DNA of 64,000 nt, taken from positions 1,042-65,041 of the forward strand of contig JBBDXP010000007.1 in assembly GCA_040902285.1 (NCBI GenBank), in the 5' to 3' direction. Source of the stretch: Candidatus Spechtbacterales bacterium. GTDB lineage: Bacteria; Patescibacteriota; Minisyncoccia; Spechtbacterales; 2-12-FULL-38-22. This document shows positions 2,714 through 62,188 of this stretch, in pieces. The number at the start of each line of letters is the position of its first letter. Position 1 is the first letter of the stretch. The notes beneath the pieces are model-generated. The model was given only the letters and a program-made list of their open reading frames with translations, was not told the origin of the DNA and ran no database searches. The position numbers and the translations under genes were made by a program.

Positions 2714-4684
2714 GTGGACACAAAACAGGTAAAATCCGCAGGAATAGTCCGCATATCCCCCCATATATTAAAAAGGGGGCAATTTTGGTTTGAAAAAAAC
2801 GAAGGCAAAATAAAATCCGAGGCCAAAAAAATAACAAGCTGGTGGAACTCAAATTATAGAAGTATTCAGGTTGACGAAAAATTTCCGCTTGGCGCTATGC
2901 TAAGACAATTAGATGATTGGGGTTATATAAAAACCTCGTTTGTAAAAAGTCCCGGAGAATTCGCGTCAAGGGGCGGGATAGTTGATGTGTTTCCGGTTAA
3001 CTTAAAAAACGCTGTTCGTTTTGAATACTTTGGAGACCTGATAACATCCATCAGTGTTTTGGAAAATGTCTTAAATAAAAATCCCCAAGAAGAACTTAGG
3101 AAAATAATTTATCGTTATCCCGAATCGGCAAAGAGCGGGAAGGCGGAAAATAAAATTCCGGCCAATTTTAAAATAGGCACATTTGTGGTGCACATAGACC
3201 ACGGAATTGCGAGGTTTGCGGGTATGGAAAAAGAAGAATTGATGGTGCTTGAATACGCGAAAGGAGACCGTTTACTTGTGCCAATTTCTGTTTCTGAAAA
3301 AGTATCGCCATATTTGGGATTCGGAGAGCCCAAATTAACGCGCCTGGGCGGCAATATTTGGGAAAAAACAAAAAGAAAAGTTAAAGAAGACCTTGTAAAA
3401 ACAGCGAAACATCTGGCAAAAATATATGCCAAGAGAGAAATGACGTTGAGGCCGGCGTATAACCCGGATATTGATGTTGCCGGCATAGGCGCGGAAACCT
3501 TTGAATACATGGAAACGCCGGGGCAAATCCAGGCCATAGAAGATATAAAAAAAGATTTTTCCAGAACAAGGCCCATGGACAGGATAATCTGCGGAGATGT
3601 GGGTTTTGGAAAAACAGAAGTTGCCATAAGAGCGGCCAGCTATGCGGTGGGGGCGGGATATCAAGTCGCTATAATAACGCCTACCACTGTTTTGGCGCAT
3701 CAGCATTTTAAAACATTCCAAAAAAGATTAGAGCAATCTTCGTATCCGCTTAACGTCGAAAAATTAACCCGCATAGAAAAGCCCGCCGAACAAAAAACAA
3801 TAAAAGAAGACATAAAAAATAACAAATGTGATATTGTTATAGGAACGCACCGGCTTTTACAGAAGGACATAGAATTCAACCGCTTGGGTTTGCTTATAAT
3901 AGACGAGGAGCAGAAATTTGGCGTTAAACAGAAAGAATTTTTTAAAGAAAAAAGATCCGAACTGGATGTGCTTTCTTTATCCGCCACCCCCATTCCCCGG
4001 ACTTTGTATTTTGCGCTTAACGGCATACGCGACCTGAGCATAATTTCGACACCTCCCGTGGGAAAAAGACCAATAAAAACTTTTGTAAGGCCCAAGAGTA
4101 AAAAAATAATCAAGCAGGCAATAGAGAAAGAACTTGGGCGAAACGGACAAATTTATTATCTTCATAACCGGATAGGTTCCATGCCGCTTGCCGCGGAAAA
4201 TTTGAAGCAACTGGTACCCTCGGCTAAAATTGAATACTTGCACGCTAAAATGCCGGAGGAAAAGATTATAGAGATTATGGATAAGTTTGAAAGCGGAAAA
4301 ATTGATGTATTAATGGCAACCACTATAATGGAAAACGGATTGGATTTCCAAAACGCGAATACCCTTATAGTGGAAAACGCGACCGGCCTAGGCCTTGCAC
4401 AAGCCCACCAAATAAGAGGAAGAATAGGCCGGAAAAACAAACAGGCGTACGCGTATTTTCTGTATCCGGGAAAGAAAATGAAAGGCAAGGCGAAAAAACG
4501 TATGCTGGCGCTTGAAGAGGCCGACTACCTTGGAGCGGGGTATGAAGTAGCCATGAAAGACCTGGAAATAAGAGGAGCCGGAAATTTACTGGGCCGGGAA
4601 CAAAGCGGAAATATTGCAAAGGTTGGCTTTAATTTGTATTGCCAGATGCTTGCTGAAGCATTAGAAGAATTACGCTCTGCGTAA
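2714..4684 (+). CDS. mfd: transcription-repair coupling factor, short form lacking the N-terminal UvrB-homology module
   Basis: An RNAP-interaction-domain-like segment (FKIGTFVVHIDHGIARFAG) is present. The SF2 helicase motifs are GDVGFGKTEVAIRAA and DEEQKFG, followed by a C-terminal translocase region. At 656 aa it is far shorter than the usual ~1100-aa Mfd. Confidence 0.75.
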   Translation: MDTKQVKSAGIVRISPHILKRGQFWFEKNEGKIKSEAKKITSWWNSNYRSIQVDEKFPLGAMLRQLDDWGYIKTSFVKSPGEFASRGGIVDVFPVNLKNAVRFEYFGDLITSISVLENVLNKNPQEELRKIIYRYPESAKSGKAENKIPANFKIGTFVVHIDHGIARFAGMEKEELMVLEYAKGDRLLVPISVSEKVSPYLGFGEPKLTRLGGNIWEKTKRKVKEDLVKTAKHLAKIYAKREMTLRPAYNPDIDVAGIGAETFEYMETPGQIQAIEDIKKDFSRTRPMDRIICGDVGFGKTEVAIRAASYAVGAGYQVAIITPTTVLAHQHFKTFQKRLEQSSYPLNVEKLTRIEKPAEQKTIKEDIKNNKCDIVIGTHRLLQKDIEFNRLGLLIIDEEQKFGVKQKEFFKEKRSELDVLSLSATPIPRTLYFALNGIRDLSIISTPPVGKRPIKTFVRPKSKKIIKQAIEKELGRNGQIYYLHNRIGSMPLAAENLKQLVPSAKIEYLHAKMPEEKIIEIMDKFESGKIDVLMATTIMENGLDFQNANTLIVENATGLGLAQAHQIRGRIGRKNKQAYAYFLYPGKKMKGKAKKRMLALEEADYLGAGYEVAMKDLEIRGAGNLLGREQSGNIAKVGFNLYCQMLAEALEELRSA

Positions 4685-4699
4685 TTCTTCTAATGCTTC
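4655..4699 (+). terminator. perfect 21-bp stem-loop overlapping the mfd stop codon
   Basis: GAAGCATTAGAAGAATTACGC pairs with GCGTAATTCTTCTAATGCTTC around a TCT loop. There is no U-run directly after it, so intrinsic-terminator function is uncertain. A tandem GTAGTAAGTAG repeat and a second small hairpin with a T-rich tail follow. Confidence 0.45.
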
Positions 4700-4766
4700 A
4701 AGTGAGTAGTAAGTAGTTGGTAGTAAGTAGTAAAAATAAAAAACACCCTTTTGGGGTTTATTCTTC

Positions 4767-35908: not shown

Positions 35909-38900
35909 TTATTTTTTTATTATGCCTATTTTCATGTTGCCTCTGCCGTAATCTTCCGCTGCCCAGGGAAATTCCGCGGTTGCGTCATATTTTTTGCCGT
36001 CTAAACTATATTCCATTATCTTGGATGTGTTTGTATCTGAAATTATCCTGCTTTCCATTTTATACAAAGTTCCGCGCAACTGTTCCGGTAAAGAATAATG
36101 CACTATTATTTTTTTATCGGGCTTTAGGCCTAAAGATTTTCTTAATTTTTGTATGTGCCTTATAATTTCTCGCACCTGTCCCTCGAGCACTAAATCGGGA
36201 GATAAAACCGTTTTTAGCGCTGTGTTTCCGGCGTTAGTTTTTTCATATGCCCAATCTTTTTTATTTTTTATATTTGGCGATAAAACAATCTCTCTTACAT
36301 TCAGTTCTTCTTTTAGAAGAACTTGGTATTGTTTTTCCATACCTTTGGGCACGGCAAAAGATTCCAGGGGCTGACGAACTTTTATGGAATTTTCGGCTCT
36401 TAATTTTAATCCTGTTCCGGCCAGCTCTCTTACAAGTTCCATTTTATCCAACGCGCTCTTTTCCGCCTTTGATAATTTTTTGTAAACCGGAAATTTTTCC
36501 CAATGCACGCTCTTTGAATCGTCCGCGTTTACTTCCTGCCAAATATGTTCGGAAAGAAACGGGATAAAAGAGGCCGACATCTTGGATGTTTCGCCTAAAA
36601 CAAATGCCAATGTTCCGGCGGCGTCTTTAAGCGAATTTTTATCTTCGGGCCTCTGTAATCTTTCGCGGGAACGCCTTATGTACCAATTTGAAAGGTCTTC
36701 CACAACAAAATTATCCAACCCACGAGCCGCGTCAAGCACATTATACGCATCCATATTGCCGGCTGTTTTTTCTCCAAGTTCCCTTAAGCGCAACAGTATC
36801 CATTTGTCCAAAATATGTTTTGAATTTATTTTATTAATCAATTTGGGCGCTTTTTGCTTTGGCGCGTATGTTTTGAGAAAAACAAGAGAATTGTACAGTG
36901 TGGAAATAAATTTCTGCATGCGCTCCCGGACATCTTTTTCACTGAAGCGTTTAACAAACCCGGGACCGTTAACCGTAAAAAAGTACCATCGGACAGAATC
37001 CATTCCGTATTTTTCGGCCAAATAAAAAGGATCTACTATATTACCTTTGCTTTTAGACATTTTTTGGCCTCTTTCGTCCAAAACATGTCCTAAAGATATA
37101 ACATTTTTATAAGATGGCGCCTTTCCAAGAACCGCCGAAACGGCAAGCATTGTATAAAACCATCCCCTTGTCTGATCCACAGCTTCGGCTATATAATCGG
37201 CCGGATATATTTTTCCTTTTTCCAAATTTCTTTTATTTTCAAAAGGATAATGCGCCTGCGCAAAAGGCATCGCGCCCGAATCAAACCACACATCGGCCAA
37301 ATCCTCCACCCTGCGCATTACGCCGTTTTCGGAATTGCAAGCGGTACAAGGAAAATTTATAGCGTCTATATACGGCCTGTGAAAATCCAATTCTCCGAAC
37401 TTGTTGTAAGGAAACTTGCTGTATTTTATTTTACGCAGCCGGCCCACAAGCGGATAATTCTTGCTCCTTCTTGCAAATGCTTCTTTGGTTGTAAGACCCA
37501 AAAGCGCGCTTTCCAATAGCCATAAAGGGTCTCCATGGCTAATTATCAATATCTTTTTATTTTTATATTTGTTTTCCAGTTCGTTCGCGACTTTCAGCAT
37601 GCGCGCCTGAACGCTTATAAGGTTTTCGCCTTTCGGCGGAGCTTTGGTAAACCTTTCTTCGGTAGAAGAAAAAATGCCAAGATAATCCTTTTCAGAGTGG
37701 CCTTCAAAAATTCCTACGCTCACATCGACAAGGCGTTGATCATAAATAACTTTTTTTCCAAGCTCTTTTGCCACAATTTCCGCAGTTTGACGAGTGCGGG
37801 TTAGTGGAGATGCAACGATAATATCAACGCCGCCCAGTTTTTTAAGCTCCTTTGTCGCGCGCCTTATATCATTTATGCCCTTTGGGATTAGGCCATATTT
37901 GAGCCCCTTTTCGGGATATCTGCTTGCCAGTATGTTTTTAACGTTTCTTTCCGACATGCCATGCCTTAAAAAATAGTATTTATTCGCGCTCTTTGTCATT
38001 TTTGCTATATCCGCGCGCGAACCTATAACTTCTGTGTGTGCGCATTCGGCGCATTTCCATATGGGAAGAGGGGTGCCCCAATATCGGGAGCGTGAAAAAG
38101 CCCAATCCTTAACATCGCGCAGCCACTCCCCGAATCGCCCCTGCTTTATATATTCGGGAAACCAATTTATTTTTTCATTTGCCGCAAGCAGCGTTTTTTT
38201 AAGGTCGCCCATGCGCACAAACCATGATTGCATCGCGTAGTAAAGAAGAGGCGTGCCGCATCTCCAGCAAAAAGGATACGAGTGTTTGTAAGGAGAGGAT
38301 TTGTATAACAAATCTTTCGTTTTCAAATAATCTATTATTCCGGTCTCGGCGTTTTTTACGAATTGTCCCTTAAAATCTTTTACCCTGTCTGTAAAAAGGC
38401 CGTTTTCATCTACGGTGTGAATTTTTGGAAGGTCGAACTTTTCAGCCAATTTATAGTCGTCTTCTCCATACATAACGGCCGTGTGCACGATACCCGTACC
38501 GTCTTCCGTGCTGACAAAATCCGCATTCACAACTATGTGCTTGTTTACCGAATCAACGTCCTTAAGAGAATCGAACAGTGGCTCGTACTCAATATTCATG
38601 GCGGACAGTTCTTTTCCAGATATCTCCTTTACAAGCTCGTACTTTCCGTTCAAAACGCTCAGCAAATCTTTTGCCAAAATGTAATATTCATTCCCCTGCT
38701 TTGCTATAACATAAGTTATTTTAGAACCCACTGCCAAAGCCACATTTCCGGGCAATGTCCAGGGAGTTGTTGTCCAGGCCAAAAGATATGTCTTTGCCTT
38801 AAAATTATAAGAGGACGGATTTTTAACCCTGAATTTTACAAAAACCGATTCTTCCACAATGTCTTTATACCCCTGCGCCACCTCGTGAGAAGAAAGTCCC

Positions 38901-39436
38901 GTGCCGCATCTCGTGCACCTGGGGGTTACTTTGTGCCCCTCATAAAGAAGATTATTTTCCCAGGCATTTTTAATAACCCACCAAAGCGTTTCCATGTATA
39001 AAGGGTCATAAGTTATATACGGATCTTTCATATCTATCCAAAAACCCATTCTTTCGGTTAAAAATTCCCAATCGCTCTTATATTTCCAAACGGATTGGCG
39101 GCATTTTTCATTGAATCTCGCTACTCCGTATTTTTCTATGTCTTTTTTATTCTTTAATCCCAATGCCTTTTCCACTTCCAGTTCCACGGGCAATCCGTGC
39201 GTGTCCCAGCCGGCCCGCCTCTCAACTCTAAAACCGCGCATTGTTTTATAGCGGCATACTATGTCTTTAAAAGAACGTGCCAGAACATGGTGCAGTCCGG
39301 GCCTTCCATTCGCAGTCGGGGGACCTTCATAAAATATAAATTGCCTTTTTTTCGGCCTTCCCGAAACGCTTTTTTCAAATGCTCCGATGCGTTTCCAGTT
39401 TTCCAATATCCTGTTTTCGAGTTTGTTAAAATCCAT
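35909..39436 (-). CDS. ileS: isoleucyl-tRNA synthetase with a histidine-phosphatase-like domain inserted in the zinc-knuckle loop
   Basis: It has HHVLARS HIGH-like, KMSKS (QKMSKSKGN) and WCISR-like motifs. Total length is 1175 aa. Between WKCAEC (aa ~461-466) and CTAC (aa ~697-700) lies a ~220-aa insert with YYFLRHGMSE and ILIISHGDP motifs. Confidence 0.9.
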   Translation of the reverse strand: MDFNKLENRILENWKRIGAFEKSVSGRPKKRQFIFYEGPPTANGRPGLHHVLARSFKDIVCRYKTMRGFRVERRAGWDTHGLPVELEVEKALGLKNKKDIEKYGVARFNEKCRQSVWKYKSDWEFLTERMGFWIDMKDPYITYDPLYMETLWWVIKNAWENNLLYEGHKVTPRCTRCGTGLSSHEVAQGYKDIVEESVFVKFRVKNPSSYNFKAKTYLLAWTTTPWTLPGNVALAVGSKITYVIAKQGNEYYILAKDLLSVLNGKYELVKEISGKELSAMNIEYEPLFDSLKDVDSVNKHIVVNADFVSTEDGTGIVHTAVMYGEDDYKLAEKFDLPKIHTVDENGLFTDRVKDFKGQFVKNAETGIIDYLKTKDLLYKSSPYKHSYPFCWRCGTPLLYYAMQSWFVRMGDLKKTLLAANEKINWFPEYIKQGRFGEWLRDVKDWAFSRSRYWGTPLPIWKCAECAHTEVIGSRADIAKMTKSANKYYFLRHGMSERNVKNILASRYPEKGLKYGLIPKGINDIRRATKELKKLGGVDIIVASPLTRTRQTAEIVAKELGKKVIYDQRLVDVSVGIFEGHSEKDYLGIFSSTEERFTKAPPKGENLISVQARMLKVANELENKYKNKKILIISHGDPLWLLESALLGLTTKEAFARRSKNYPLVGRLRKIKYSKFPYNKFGELDFHRPYIDAINFPCTACNSENGVMRRVEDLADVWFDSGAMPFAQAHYPFENKRNLEKGKIYPADYIAEAVDQTRGWFYTMLAVSAVLGKAPSYKNVISLGHVLDERGQKMSKSKGNIVDPFYLAEKYGMDSVRWYFFTVNGPGFVKRFSEKDVRERMQKFISTLYNSLVFLKTYAPKQKAPKLINKINSKHILDKWILLRLRELGEKTAGNMDAYNVLDAARGLDNFVVEDLSNWYIRRSRERLQRPEDKNSLKDAAGTLAFVLGETSKMSASFIPFLSEHIWQEVNADDSKSVHWEKFPVYKKLSKAEKSALDKMELVRELAGTGLKLRAENSIKVRQPLESFAVPKGMEKQYQVLLKEELNVREIVLSPNIKNKKDWAYEKTNAGNTALKTVLSPDLVLEGQVREIIRHIQKLRKSLGLKPDKKIIVHYSLPEQLRGTLYKMESRIISDTNTSKIMEYSLDGKKYDATAEFPWAAEDYGRGNMKIGIIKK

Positions 39437-51746: not shown

Positions 51747-51834
51747 TCGAGGATACGAGCGAAAAGAAAAAGATTAAATCATAGAAAGCTTGCTTTCAAA
51801 GATTTAAGATTTTTCTTTTCCGAGCGCCGCAGAC
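51747..51834. repeat. AAAAGAAAA hairpin element, locus 1 (upstream of ruvA)
   Basis: CGAGGATACGAGCGAAAAGAAAAA-[38-nt insert containing the GAAAGCTTGCTTTC palindrome]-ATTTTTCTTTTCCGAGCGCCGCAGAC. It shares about 45 nt with locus 2 at 60591-60650. Confidence 0.45.
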
Positions 51835-60998: not shown

Positions 60999-61412
60999 TC
61001 ACGCACGGTAGTGCATGATCTTGTCGAGCGAGTTGAACTTCTGGTCTGACCAGTAGAACATCAGCGTCCACCGGCCGTTCGTCCAGGCCAGATACGGAAC
61101 TCGAAGCGAACCGGTCCGGTCGCGCCACAGAGTGGCGGGAAAGACCAGGTTGAACCTCTGCCGGTGTTCCGGGATCAGGTCCTGGTGATCCACAAACCAT
61201 TCGGCCGTCATCATGCCGACGTTGGCGCCGAACCATATGGCTCTCTTGCGTAGCTCCTCCAGCCAGACGTATTGCTCGTCGGGAAGAAGGAAGCCGATGG
61301 GGGTGTAGTCACCAAAGCGGTGATCCGGACCTTCCTGAACAAGTTCCCAGCCCTTTTCGATGTAGATTTCGTCCGGGGCCAGGTCCTTATGTTCCGACAC
61401 TATGCGTGCCAT
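60999..61412 (-). CDS. hypothetical protein on GC-rich island c (138 aa from MARIVSEHK)
   Basis: GC is strongly elevated. An AGGAAGGAG RBS lies 7 nt upstream of the ATG at 61412. No known motif; the protein is Trp-rich (WELVQEGPDHRFGDY...WTNGRWTLMFYW). Confidence 0.45.
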   Translation of the reverse strand: MARIVSEHKDLAPDEIYIEKGWELVQEGPDHRFGDYTPIGFLLPDEQYVWLEELRKRAIWFGANVGMMTAEWFVDHQDLIPEHRQRFNLVFPATLWRDRTGSLRVPYLAWTNGRWTLMFYWSDQKFNSLDKIMHYRA

Positions 61413-61480
61413 GGCAAACTCCTTCCTCAGAAATTGCAAAGTGCAATGCAGATTCTTTGTCTGCAATGTCTATATTATAT
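61413..61480 (-). promoter_or_regulatory. promoter (-10 TATAAT) plus two palindromic operator-like sites in the 5' UTR of the island c gene
   Basis: Minus-strand sequence is TTTATGATATAATATAGACATTGCAGACAAAGAATCTGCATTGCACTTTGCAATTTCTGAGGAAGGAG. The palindromes are TGCAGA-N7-TCTGCA and ATTGCA-N3-TGCAAT. Confidence 0.35.
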
Positions 61481-61525
61481 CATAAATAAAAATAAAAAAC
61501 AAGGTTTTAGCTTGCTTTTTGGGGA

Positions 61526-61669
61526 GATACGCGCAGTATTGTTTTTAACGACCGCGGTTCTGTTTTTCCTGCGAAAACAGACCGCTCCCTCTCGGCATTT
61601 TCGCCTCGCTACACTCGGACCAAGCCGAAAATGCCTCCGAGAATCGTTAAAAACAATACCGCGCGTATC
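61526..61669. repeat. 144-nt highly structured imperfect inverted repeat (candidate ncRNA or MITE-like element) directly downstream of the zinc-ribbon gene
   Basis: GATACGCGCAGTATTGTTTTTAACGA ... TCGTTAAAAACAATACCGCGCGTATC is a 26-bp stem with one mismatch. Inner arms are CTCGGCATTTTCG/CGAAAATGCCTCCGAG. A nested hairpin CTGTTTT-TCCTGCG-AAAACAG is also present. Confidence 0.45.
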
Positions 61670-61675
61670 CCTTTA

Positions 61676-62188
61676 CTACTTGGGCCACCAAACACGCACC
61701 CGTGCCGTATCCTCCCCTTTCGAAAATTGTATATCCACCTCAGCACCCTTGTGTGCTTTTTCTATTTCTTTACCAATGGCCATTGCAAGCTGGTTCTCCG
61801 ATGTTTTTATTTCAATTTTGTCGCCCAAATAATGAAAATCCAATATCCTGTCCAAAACATCTCTTTGGTGGGCGCGCTCGGCTATGTTGTTGACTTGATT
61901 CAGCACCTCTTTGCCAAGTCCCACTGGTATGTTTTCGATTATTACTTGCCCCTCAAATAATCCTTTCTTTTTCATATCATCCGCCGGACAAAGAACAAAT
62001 TTTATTCGCTTATCCGGATTTGCGCGCCGATATTCTTCCAAACCGTGGTGCCAGCTTTTTTCAAAATACACGGCGTTGCACTCCGGACATATTAAAATAT
62101 CCTGTTTGCCCGGGCCGAATTCCTGCTCTTCCTTTTTGGGGCGAGGAAATTCTCCGTGAAACGGTTGTGATGGTATTTTGTCTGTCAT
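61676..62188 (-). CDS. hypothetical protein with an N-terminal CxxC...C zinc-ribbon-like motif
   Basis: ICPECNAVYFEKSWHH...FVLCPADD. 170 aa with no confident family. Confidence 0.4.
   Translation of the reverse strand: MTDKIPSQPFHGEFPRPKKEEQEFGPGKQDILICPECNAVYFEKSWHHGLEEYRRANPDKRIKFVLCPADDMKKKGLFEGQVIIENIPVGLGKEVLNQVNNIAERAHQRDVLDRILDFHYLGDKIEIKTSENQLAMAIGKEIEKAHKGAEVDIQFSKGEDTARVRVWWPK

Follow-up and report, generated by a model that had tools for sequence, protein, structure and literature searches.

The spacer between two genes of an uncultured, groundwater-type CPR bacterium (Candidatus Spechtbacterales) holds a long and branched inverted repeat, and the question raised by this locus is what kind of object such a palindrome represents. 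A preliminary description of the 64,000-nt stretch of DNA analysed here, referred to as the window throughout, had offered three options: a non-coding RNA, an attenuator or protein-binding structure, and a miniature transposable element with inverted repeats (MITE). The MITE-like option stands in part, whereas the non-coding RNA and the attenuator do not. The explanation that we favour, and to which we would give roughly an even chance, is a lineage-specific, non-coding foldback insertion of ~150 bp that is bounded by 26-nt terminal inverted repeats and, by analogy, is comparable to MITEs or to palindromic elements of the Correia, ERIC or RPE kind.

Architecture of the inverted repeat

The element spans 144 nt (61526-61669) and is composed of two 26-nt arms, 96% complementary, with 92 nt between them; neither the arms nor the inner hairpins are assigned to a strand. 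The left terminal inverted repeat (arm L, 61526-61551) has the sequence GATACGCGCAGTATTGTTTTTAACGA, to which the right one (arm R, 61644-61669) is complementary at 25 of 26 positions, as expected from the earlier claim of a 26-bp outer stem with a single mismatch. This sole mismatch, 61535/61660, is A/C on the plus strand and a G-U pair in minus-strand RNA. The inner helices that had also been described are present as two hairpins, A and B, between the arms. Hairpin B (61553-61588) carries a left arm, CGCGGTTCTGTTTTT, that copies the arm core CGCGGTATTGTTTTT, and its own core (61559-61566/61574-61581) forms 8 perfect bp, or about 12 bp with one bulge; it corresponds to the nested hairpin previously given as 7 bp. 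Hairpin A (61589-61642) consists of a junction helix (TCTCGG/CCGAGA) and a stem of the form GGCATTTTCG.C/G.CGAAAATGCC (61594-61606/61623-61635; 13 nt with 1 mismatch); its apical part is irregular.

The left arm of hairpin B is identical to the arm core at 13 of 15 positions, a level reached by none of 500 shuffles of the interior, and, being a copy of that core, it makes hairpin B a nested miniature of the element's own ends. The core GCGGTnyTGTTTT thus occurs four times inside the element, twice in the forward orientation and then twice in the reverse, the last copy being set apart from the others. As far as can be read from the sequence, the recurrence of the arm core in hairpin B points to modular repeat DNA, such as subterminal binding sites or REP-like doublets, and the four-core pattern is unlike that of an evolved, riboswitch-like RNA.

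The GC content of the element is 51%, and the surrounding spacer is AT-rich. Its internal open reading frames amount to a single one of 17 codons without a Shine-Dalgarno sequence, plus antisense read-throughs. Across 61518-61676, three of the six frames are free of stops over the whole element, including that of the upstream gene past its tandem stops TAG TAA, which is probably a coincidence. The plus-strand flanks, ...TTTTTGGGGA| on the left and |CCTTTACTAC on the right, contain no direct repeat, and there is no clear target-site duplication at the flanks, where an ambiguous and uninformative AAA appears only if the ends are redrawn at GGG...CCCC. An empty site, if present, would join TAGTAAAGG directly to TCCCCAAAAAGC.

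The whole RNA unit predicted to fold (61521-61674, minus strand) comprises a ~30-bp stem closing a three-way junction. On the minus strand, which is the transcribed one, the fold reaches -86.8 kcal/mol against a shuffle mean of -45, with z-scores of -10.4 to -11.95 (the latter for the 154-nt unit), and is matched by none of 200 shuffles; the plus strand folds at -73 kcal/mol with a z-score of -9.3. The arm sequence is expected by chance 0.00 times in the window. The inverted repeat is real and lies far beyond chance. Within the core element there are four G-U pairs in the sense fold and one in the antisense fold, an asymmetry that may weakly suggest a role for pairing in the transcript, or may be due to chance. 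Among the long inverted repeats of the window, the element alone is multi-branched; the others are plain hairpins, mostly with A/T tracts. These include a simple, unbranched hairpin with a perfect 22-bp stem across the stop codon of an Mfd-like gene (4654-4700) and another simple, unbranched hairpin with AT-rich arms of 29 nt between ruvA and a PolX-like gene (51761-51820).

The locus and its neighbouring genes

Upstream of the element on the minus strand lies a gene for a 170-aa, NMD3-like or BCAM0308-like zinc-ribbon protein (61676-62188), the homologues of which carry PF04981 (NMD3); the NCBIfam BCAM0308 match is below cut-off. The stop codon of this gene (61676-61678) is separated from the element arm by 6 nt, so that the earlier placement of the element just past the zinc-ribbon stop was correct, with the gene read on the minus strand. 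The order on this strand is zinc-ribbon gene, element, small terminator, promoter and 137-aa gene, and the position that had been assigned to the element, upstream of the next gene's promoter, therefore also holds on the transcribed strand. The small terminator (61494-61520, minus strand) is a hairpin with a T-run, AAAAAGCAAG-CTAAAAC-CTTGTTTTTT, which is situated 5-12 nt downstream of the element, is conserved, and is likely to be the real terminator of the upstream gene. It overlaps the promoter-like site of the 137-aa gene (61474-61502, minus strand), which was read by eye in the sequence and alignment as a -35 box TTGTTT (61497-61502), a 17-nt spacer and an extended -10 box TGATATAAT (61474-61482); the promoter scan did not call this site.

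The downstream gene (60999-61412, minus strand) encodes a GC-rich orphan protein of 137 aa, with 58% GC and 75% GC at third codon positions (GC3) in a window of 42% GC. Homologues of this gene stay GC-rich (51-58%) in genomes of 38-44% GC, across lineages that are ~70% identical; in the relative designated L004 the GC3 is 66%, compared with 75% in the window. The homologous copies in relatives are found at L004:5001-5414, L010:1971-2504 and L011:1750-2160. The last of these is broken by in-frame stops (TGATAA near 2001-2006), after which homology resumes, and is likely, from its sequence, to be a pseudogene or a split gene. The 137-aa protein gave no match to Pfam, NCBIfam, PHROG or PADLOC, and ten members of its family likewise had no Pfam match. 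An exhaustive HMMER search retrieved 552 representative clusters, 142 of them at E<=1e-10, mostly of 130-220 aa with the domain at the C terminus and in some members with 2-4 copies of it. Judged by these homologues, the protein is a member of an uncharacterised domain family.

Proteins identical to the two neighbours are annotated in an NCBI Candidatus Spechtbacterales MAG (WD712_00930, WD712_00935). The rest of the window is core chromosome, with parAB, topA, dprA, relA/spoT, smpB and tmRNA, infC, rplT and ruvA, along with several aminoacyl-tRNA synthetase genes. None of the 54 window ORFs of at least 90 aa contains a transposase, integrase or reverse transcriptase domain in Pfam scans or precomputed matches, and relaxase and recombinase genes were absent from the window in Pfam scans. 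One of the synthetase-like ORFs (35909-39436, minus strand), an isoleucyl-tRNA-synthetase-like protein of 1175 aa, includes a histidine-phosphatase domain (PF00300, residues 488-657, E 2.6e-29) with the class I synthetase domain matched on either side of it, which is an unusual insertion or fusion.

Comparison with related lineages

Among 5.8 billion protein clusters, identity to the closest relatives reaches only about 70%, and those compared here comprise L003-L008 (a Spechtbacteria MAG and matching metagenome contigs), L009/L010 and L011. The gene order permease, NMD3-like gene, 137-aa gene and Wzy-like gene is kept in all three relatives, and the spacer from the NMD3-like gene to the 137-aa gene is about 100-136 nt in them against 263 nt here. 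Within this spacer, the window and the relatives have in common the small hairpin with its T-run (AAAAACAAGGnnAAAAnCCTTGTTTTTT; alignments A1 and A4), and the leader hairpin and Shine-Dalgarno sequence of the 137-aa gene; the promoter-like site (TTGTTT, 17 nt, TGATATAAT) is nearly invariant across the element-free relatives. The element, by contrast, is one clean extra block that occurs in the window only, in place of which the relatives hold 23-40 nt of unrelated and mutually unalignable sequence. Its lack in all three relatives identifies it as a lineage-specific block of about 150 nt. The 137-aa gene is present in relatives that lack the element and is not part of it.

Identity between the NMD3-like proteins of the window, the L004 and L010 clade, and L011 is 69-72%, so that the three lineages are about equidistant and a single gain is as parsimonious as loss, or more so: gain needs one event, whereas under two of the three possible rootings loss would require two. 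The near-perfect arms beside a saturated spacer suggest, in so far as sequence comparison can tell, that the element arrived recently or that its pairing has been maintained, and arms that are 25/26 complementary despite an unalignable neighbouring spacer fit a young insertion. The small terminator is predicted to fold at -6.8 kcal/mol here compared with -11.1, -12.7 and -11.8 kcal/mol in the three relatives, a weakening which may reflect drift or a role partly replaced by the element.

Directly after the promoter-like site, the leader hairpin of the 137-aa gene (61447-61465, minus strand; about columns 226-245 of alignment A4) has the arms TGCAGA/TCTGCA here, TGTAGA/TCTAC in L004 and L011, and GTAGG/CCTAC in L010, as read by eye. 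It appears to keep its pairing via changes on both sides and is probably a conserved 5' stem-loop or operator.

Search for further copies

A genome-wide search for additional copies had been suggested for this element, and searches of 71 kb of contig and of the public collections scanned returned none. The contig searched was the window with 7.3 kb more (71 kb), taken from Logan assembly SRR27977660 (72-kb contig). No second copy was found in these 71 kb with the arm at up to 3 mismatches, with short-word BLAST, with the core motif or with a covariance model, R1, that was built from the element and run on the window, the additional 7.3 kb and the loci of the relatives. Chance-level matches aside, the core motif at up to 2 mismatches is found only inside the element. 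Likewise, the 71 kb contain nothing from which the arms or the interior could have been copied, which leaves the fallback of a local duplication, put forward in the preliminary description, without a template there.

In the wider collections, the 20-mer arm had no match in GTDB species genomes and five in JGI metagenomes, all of which are lone arms within coding sequence and, lacking a partner arm, are put down to chance; the 18-mer arm had one chance match in IMG/VR. Neither blastn against plasmids and phages nor a search of 5.8 billion proteins, among which copies miscalled as ORFs would be found, with the element translated in six frames gave a match.

A gapped two-arm core pattern had a single match in genomes, a foldback in a Planctomyces-binned MAG (L018:2003-2160, JAYVSP010000406.1) that is ~150 nt long, with perfect arms of ~34 nt, a fold of -100 kcal/mol and a z-score of -12.6. 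This foldback was rejected as a relative: only the bases imposed by the search are common to both, interior and flanks are unrelated, and model R1 missed it. Beyond the 16-nt core that was searched for it has no sequence in common with the element, and it is probably an unrelated repeat element; by a rough estimate about one such chance match is expected, foldbacks being common. Its flanks contain several copies of the GC-rich repeat CCGCCCTCGCTnAnGCTTT and its complement. In IMG/VR, the gapped patterns and the words from the inner hairpins retrieved chance matches or an unrelated, iteron-like repeat. The latter (L043:6140-6290, IMGVR_UViG_3300021399_000109) lies in a 159-kb viral contig and consists of at least five direct copies of AGTTGTT(A/G)AAAACAAT within ~190 nt and one inverted core copy, an iteron- or operator-like array that is unrelated to the element.

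Assignment to known classes

Prokaryotic MITEs are defined as elements of about 50-800 bp without an internal transposase gene (PMC11602168), with terminal inverted repeats of at least 10-15 bp and a target-site duplication of 2-10 bp (PMC11602168). Further marks of the class are multiple copies in one genome or related ones in others, presence or absence at an otherwise conserved site, and a partner insertion sequence or transposase whose inverted repeats match. The element falls within this definition at 144 bp and has no transposase gene inside it; its 26-nt arms, 25/26 complementary, exceed the length given for terminal inverted repeats; and it is missing at the syntenic spacer in three relatives of ~70% protein identity. 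No clear target-site duplication accompanies it at the flanks, and for a mobilising partner the window offers neither an ORF with a transposase-family Pfam match nor the arm at any other place. The proposal of a MITE thus agrees with the size, the terminal inverted repeats, the non-coding nature and the absence in relatives; no second copy was found in the 71 kb and the collections scanned, no clear target-site duplication at the flanks and no candidate transposase in the window. That the element is MITE-like is partly supported; it is not a proven MITE.

The RNA classes fare less well. At the gathering score, Rfam matched only tmRNA and tRNA in the whole window, and at E<=10 the region 61300-61900 gave sub-threshold chance matches, all outside the element or only partly overlapping it; the Rfam check that had been proposed therefore assigned no family at either threshold. 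ARAGORN, which searches for tRNA and tmRNA, reported nothing at the locus. With no Rfam match, no counterpart in any relative and no promoter-like site in or next to the element, the claim of a non-coding RNA is not sustained. Nor is that of an attenuator: the element precedes the promoter that is conserved for the 137-aa gene and is not in that gene's leader, and it has no terminator/antiterminator with a U-tract. The absence of a U-tract, as noted earlier, is evident after the structure on either strand, and an intrinsic terminator was rejected on the sequence that follows the stem (CUCCCCAAAAAGC in the sense, CCUUUACUAC on the other strand) and because the terminator scan does not call the element. 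The genome otherwise uses plain hairpin-plus-T-run terminators, and the element is not needed for termination. According to the preliminary description itself, a lack of further copies and of covariation, together with absence from close relatives, would speak for a neutral palindrome or local duplication; no second copy was found in the contig and collections searched, the relatives compared are without the element, and a single instance offers no covariation, so that the functional-RNA readings fail by this measure.

Several more specific identities were considered and set aside. An integron attC site was judged by outer ends of the consensus form R''(RYYYAAC)...R'(GTTRRRY), by extrahelical bases, and by an integrase or cassette array nearby; the outer ends are GATACGCG.../...CGCGTATC, the motifs GTTAAAA/TTTTAAC lie at the inner ends and are off-consensus, and the window has no integrase. 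A REP/REPIN identity was rejected on a core that, chance level aside, is found only inside the element within 71 kb and on the absence of a Y1 transposase match in the window, and a retron RNA on the absence of a reverse transcriptase gene from the window. The core motifs of a hammerhead-type three-way-junction ribozyme are absent, again with no Rfam match, and a 6S-, SRP- or Y-RNA-like hairpin has neither an Rfam match nor conservation in its favour. The 137-aa protein was dismissed as a RAYT- or TnpA-like partner, as it shows no HUH motif or family match and relatives keep the gene without the element. An assembly artefact is unlikely because the 144 nt are unique and not copied from the flanks.

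Origin and possible role of the element

We tentatively propose that the foldback insertion landed in the short, non-conserved spacer between the NMD3-like stop codon and the small terminator. Since a conserved terminator lies downstream of it, transcription of the NMD3-like gene probably runs on through the element, which would be a passive passenger in the 3' UTR of that mRNA. There, a ~30-bp duplex closing a three-way junction would either hinder 3'-to-5' exonucleases or be cut by an RNase III-type double-strand RNase, and the stability of the upstream mRNA could shift as a side effect, with no dedicated and conserved function. The four cores might most simply be former binding sites of the protein that moved or built the element.

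The best surviving alternative, which we nevertheless consider unlikely, is that this lineage acquired or built the structure and has kept it, for its usefulness, as a selected, cis-acting RNA in the NMD3-like 3' UTR, where it would stabilise the mRNA, serve RNase III as a processing site, or insulate the separately promoted 137-aa gene from the operon upstream. Several features are consistent with such selection on the transcript. Folding is stronger for the sense than for the antisense strand (-86.8 against -73 kcal/mol), the sole mismatch between the arms pairs as G-U in sense RNA, where the core has four such pairs against one, and the arms are near-perfect while the adjoining spacer evolves fast. 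The downstream terminator is also weaker here (-6.8 kcal/mol against -11.1 to -12.7), so its role may have been partly taken over. However, the element is missing in every relative and hence is not needed for the locus to work, and ~30 near-perfect bp are unlike most evolved structured RNAs. Moreover, this is a single instance without an Rfam match, in which the G-U asymmetry rests on five positions.

It is decidedly unlikely, in our estimate, that the palindrome was generated locally, by template switching or inversion-duplications of a ~15-nt unit, and has never been mobile or functional. Its single copy in 71 kb of contig and the public collections scanned, and the lack of both a target-site duplication and a transposase in the window, agree with a local origin, as do the four copies of the 15-nt core in mirrored order, which stepwise palindrome growth would give. 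Against this stand ~90 nt of interior (hairpin A and linkers) that have no counterpart in the window, the extra contig or the relatives' spacers, from which it follows that most of the element's sequence must have come from elsewhere.

A slim chance, no greater than that of a local origin, attaches to the more far-reaching proposition that the element is either the first representative of a hitherto undescribed class of foldbacks, mobile or bound by protein, in CPR bacteria (Spechtbacterales) or a selected, lineage-specific 3'-UTR RNA. As the first member of a class, its ends and the nested mini-hairpin would have one putative recognition core, GCGGTnyTGTTTT; as a 3'-UTR RNA, the structure would putatively control the stability of the NMD3-like mRNA or shield the neighbouring promoter.

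The remaining explanations are weaker. That the element acts at the DNA level as a protein-binding or recombination site, for instance of a recombinase or partition type, or else a folded site that is attC-like or similar to a single-strand origin, is highly improbable. The four cores in two inverted pairs would suit such a site, and TAGCGA in the loop of hairpin A resembles the CS-6 loop motif of ssoA origins, although a 6-mer match is expected by chance. The window around the element, however, has no recombinase, integrase or relaxase gene, and as to the element, its outer ends do not carry the attC end motifs, nor does the stem have the usual extrahelical bases, and the site is missing in relatives and lies in a core chromosome region (parAB, topA, aminoacyl-tRNA synthetases). 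Finally, an independent small RNA gene has hardly any chance of being correct, for despite its very stable, intergenic fold of 144-154 nt the element neither contains nor adjoins a promoter-like site (on the minus strand, the nearest precedes the zinc-ribbon gene), does not have its own terminator, matches no Rfam family and is not conserved in relatives.

Taken as the foldback insertion that we prefer, the element matters little alone: bacteria commonly carry small palindromic insertions at the 3' ends of genes, and the usual effects of these on mRNA stability or RNase III cleavage are already well documented. It is an ordinary kind of object without known sequence relatives in the collections searched. 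A full-text literature search found no paper describing MITEs in CPR bacteria, and mobile DNA in these streamlined genomes thus appears to be little described. If further copies exist, ends and interior with one recognition core could point to the mobilising enzyme. For annotation, this is a locus without a conserved regulatory RNA, at which conservation is in fact confined to signals downstream of the element, namely small terminator, promoter and leader hairpin.

Comparison with known systems

The element displays individual features of several well-characterised classes. With intrinsic (Rho-independent) terminators it shares a stable structure directly past a stop codon, but it is branched, 144 nt long and without a U-tract, and an ordinary, conserved terminator is found downstream of it. 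REP and REPIN sequences, which are inverted pairs of a short palindromic unit that starts with G and C, likewise form long hairpins just past stop codons, and the nested arm core recalls REP doublets. Unlike these, the unit of the element occurs nowhere else in 71 kb and is accompanied by no RAYT or Y1 transposase gene in Pfam scans; the 137-aa neighbour differs from RAYT proteins in having no His-hydrophobic-His motif and no PF01797 match.

Small, streamlined genomes also carry small palindromic repeats as insertions, among them the RPEs of Rickettsia, which are about 100-150 bp in length, multi-copy and often located inside genes. They are stop-free and tolerate insertion into genes. The putative resemblance to the element lies in its stop-free frames (three of six); the element is set apart by being intergenic and single-copy in the data.

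Further parallels are the palindromic elements of transcribed spacers. Correia elements, the MITEs of Neisseria, are alike in being about 100-200 bp in length, non-coding and intergenic, with long terminal inverted repeats. These repeats are 26 bp, and insertion is accompanied by duplication of a TA target. Correia elements are present in more than 100 copies per genome and contain IHF sites and promoters, whereas the element is found in one copy in the data searched, with no clear duplication, no promoter-like site and no sequence similarity to them. The ERIC or IRU sequences of enterobacteria are imperfect palindromes of about 127 bp that occupy transcribed intergenic regions, often at the 3' ends of genes (PMC10969869). 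Their family numbers 30-700 copies and has a consensus that is conserved across genera, and no such family was found for the element in the collections scanned. Insertions of ERIC at gene 3' ends change the levels or stability of the mRNA (PMC10969869), and Correia elements are transcribed together with the genes beside them, RNase III cutting the RNA duplex into which their inverted repeats pair (PMC10969869).
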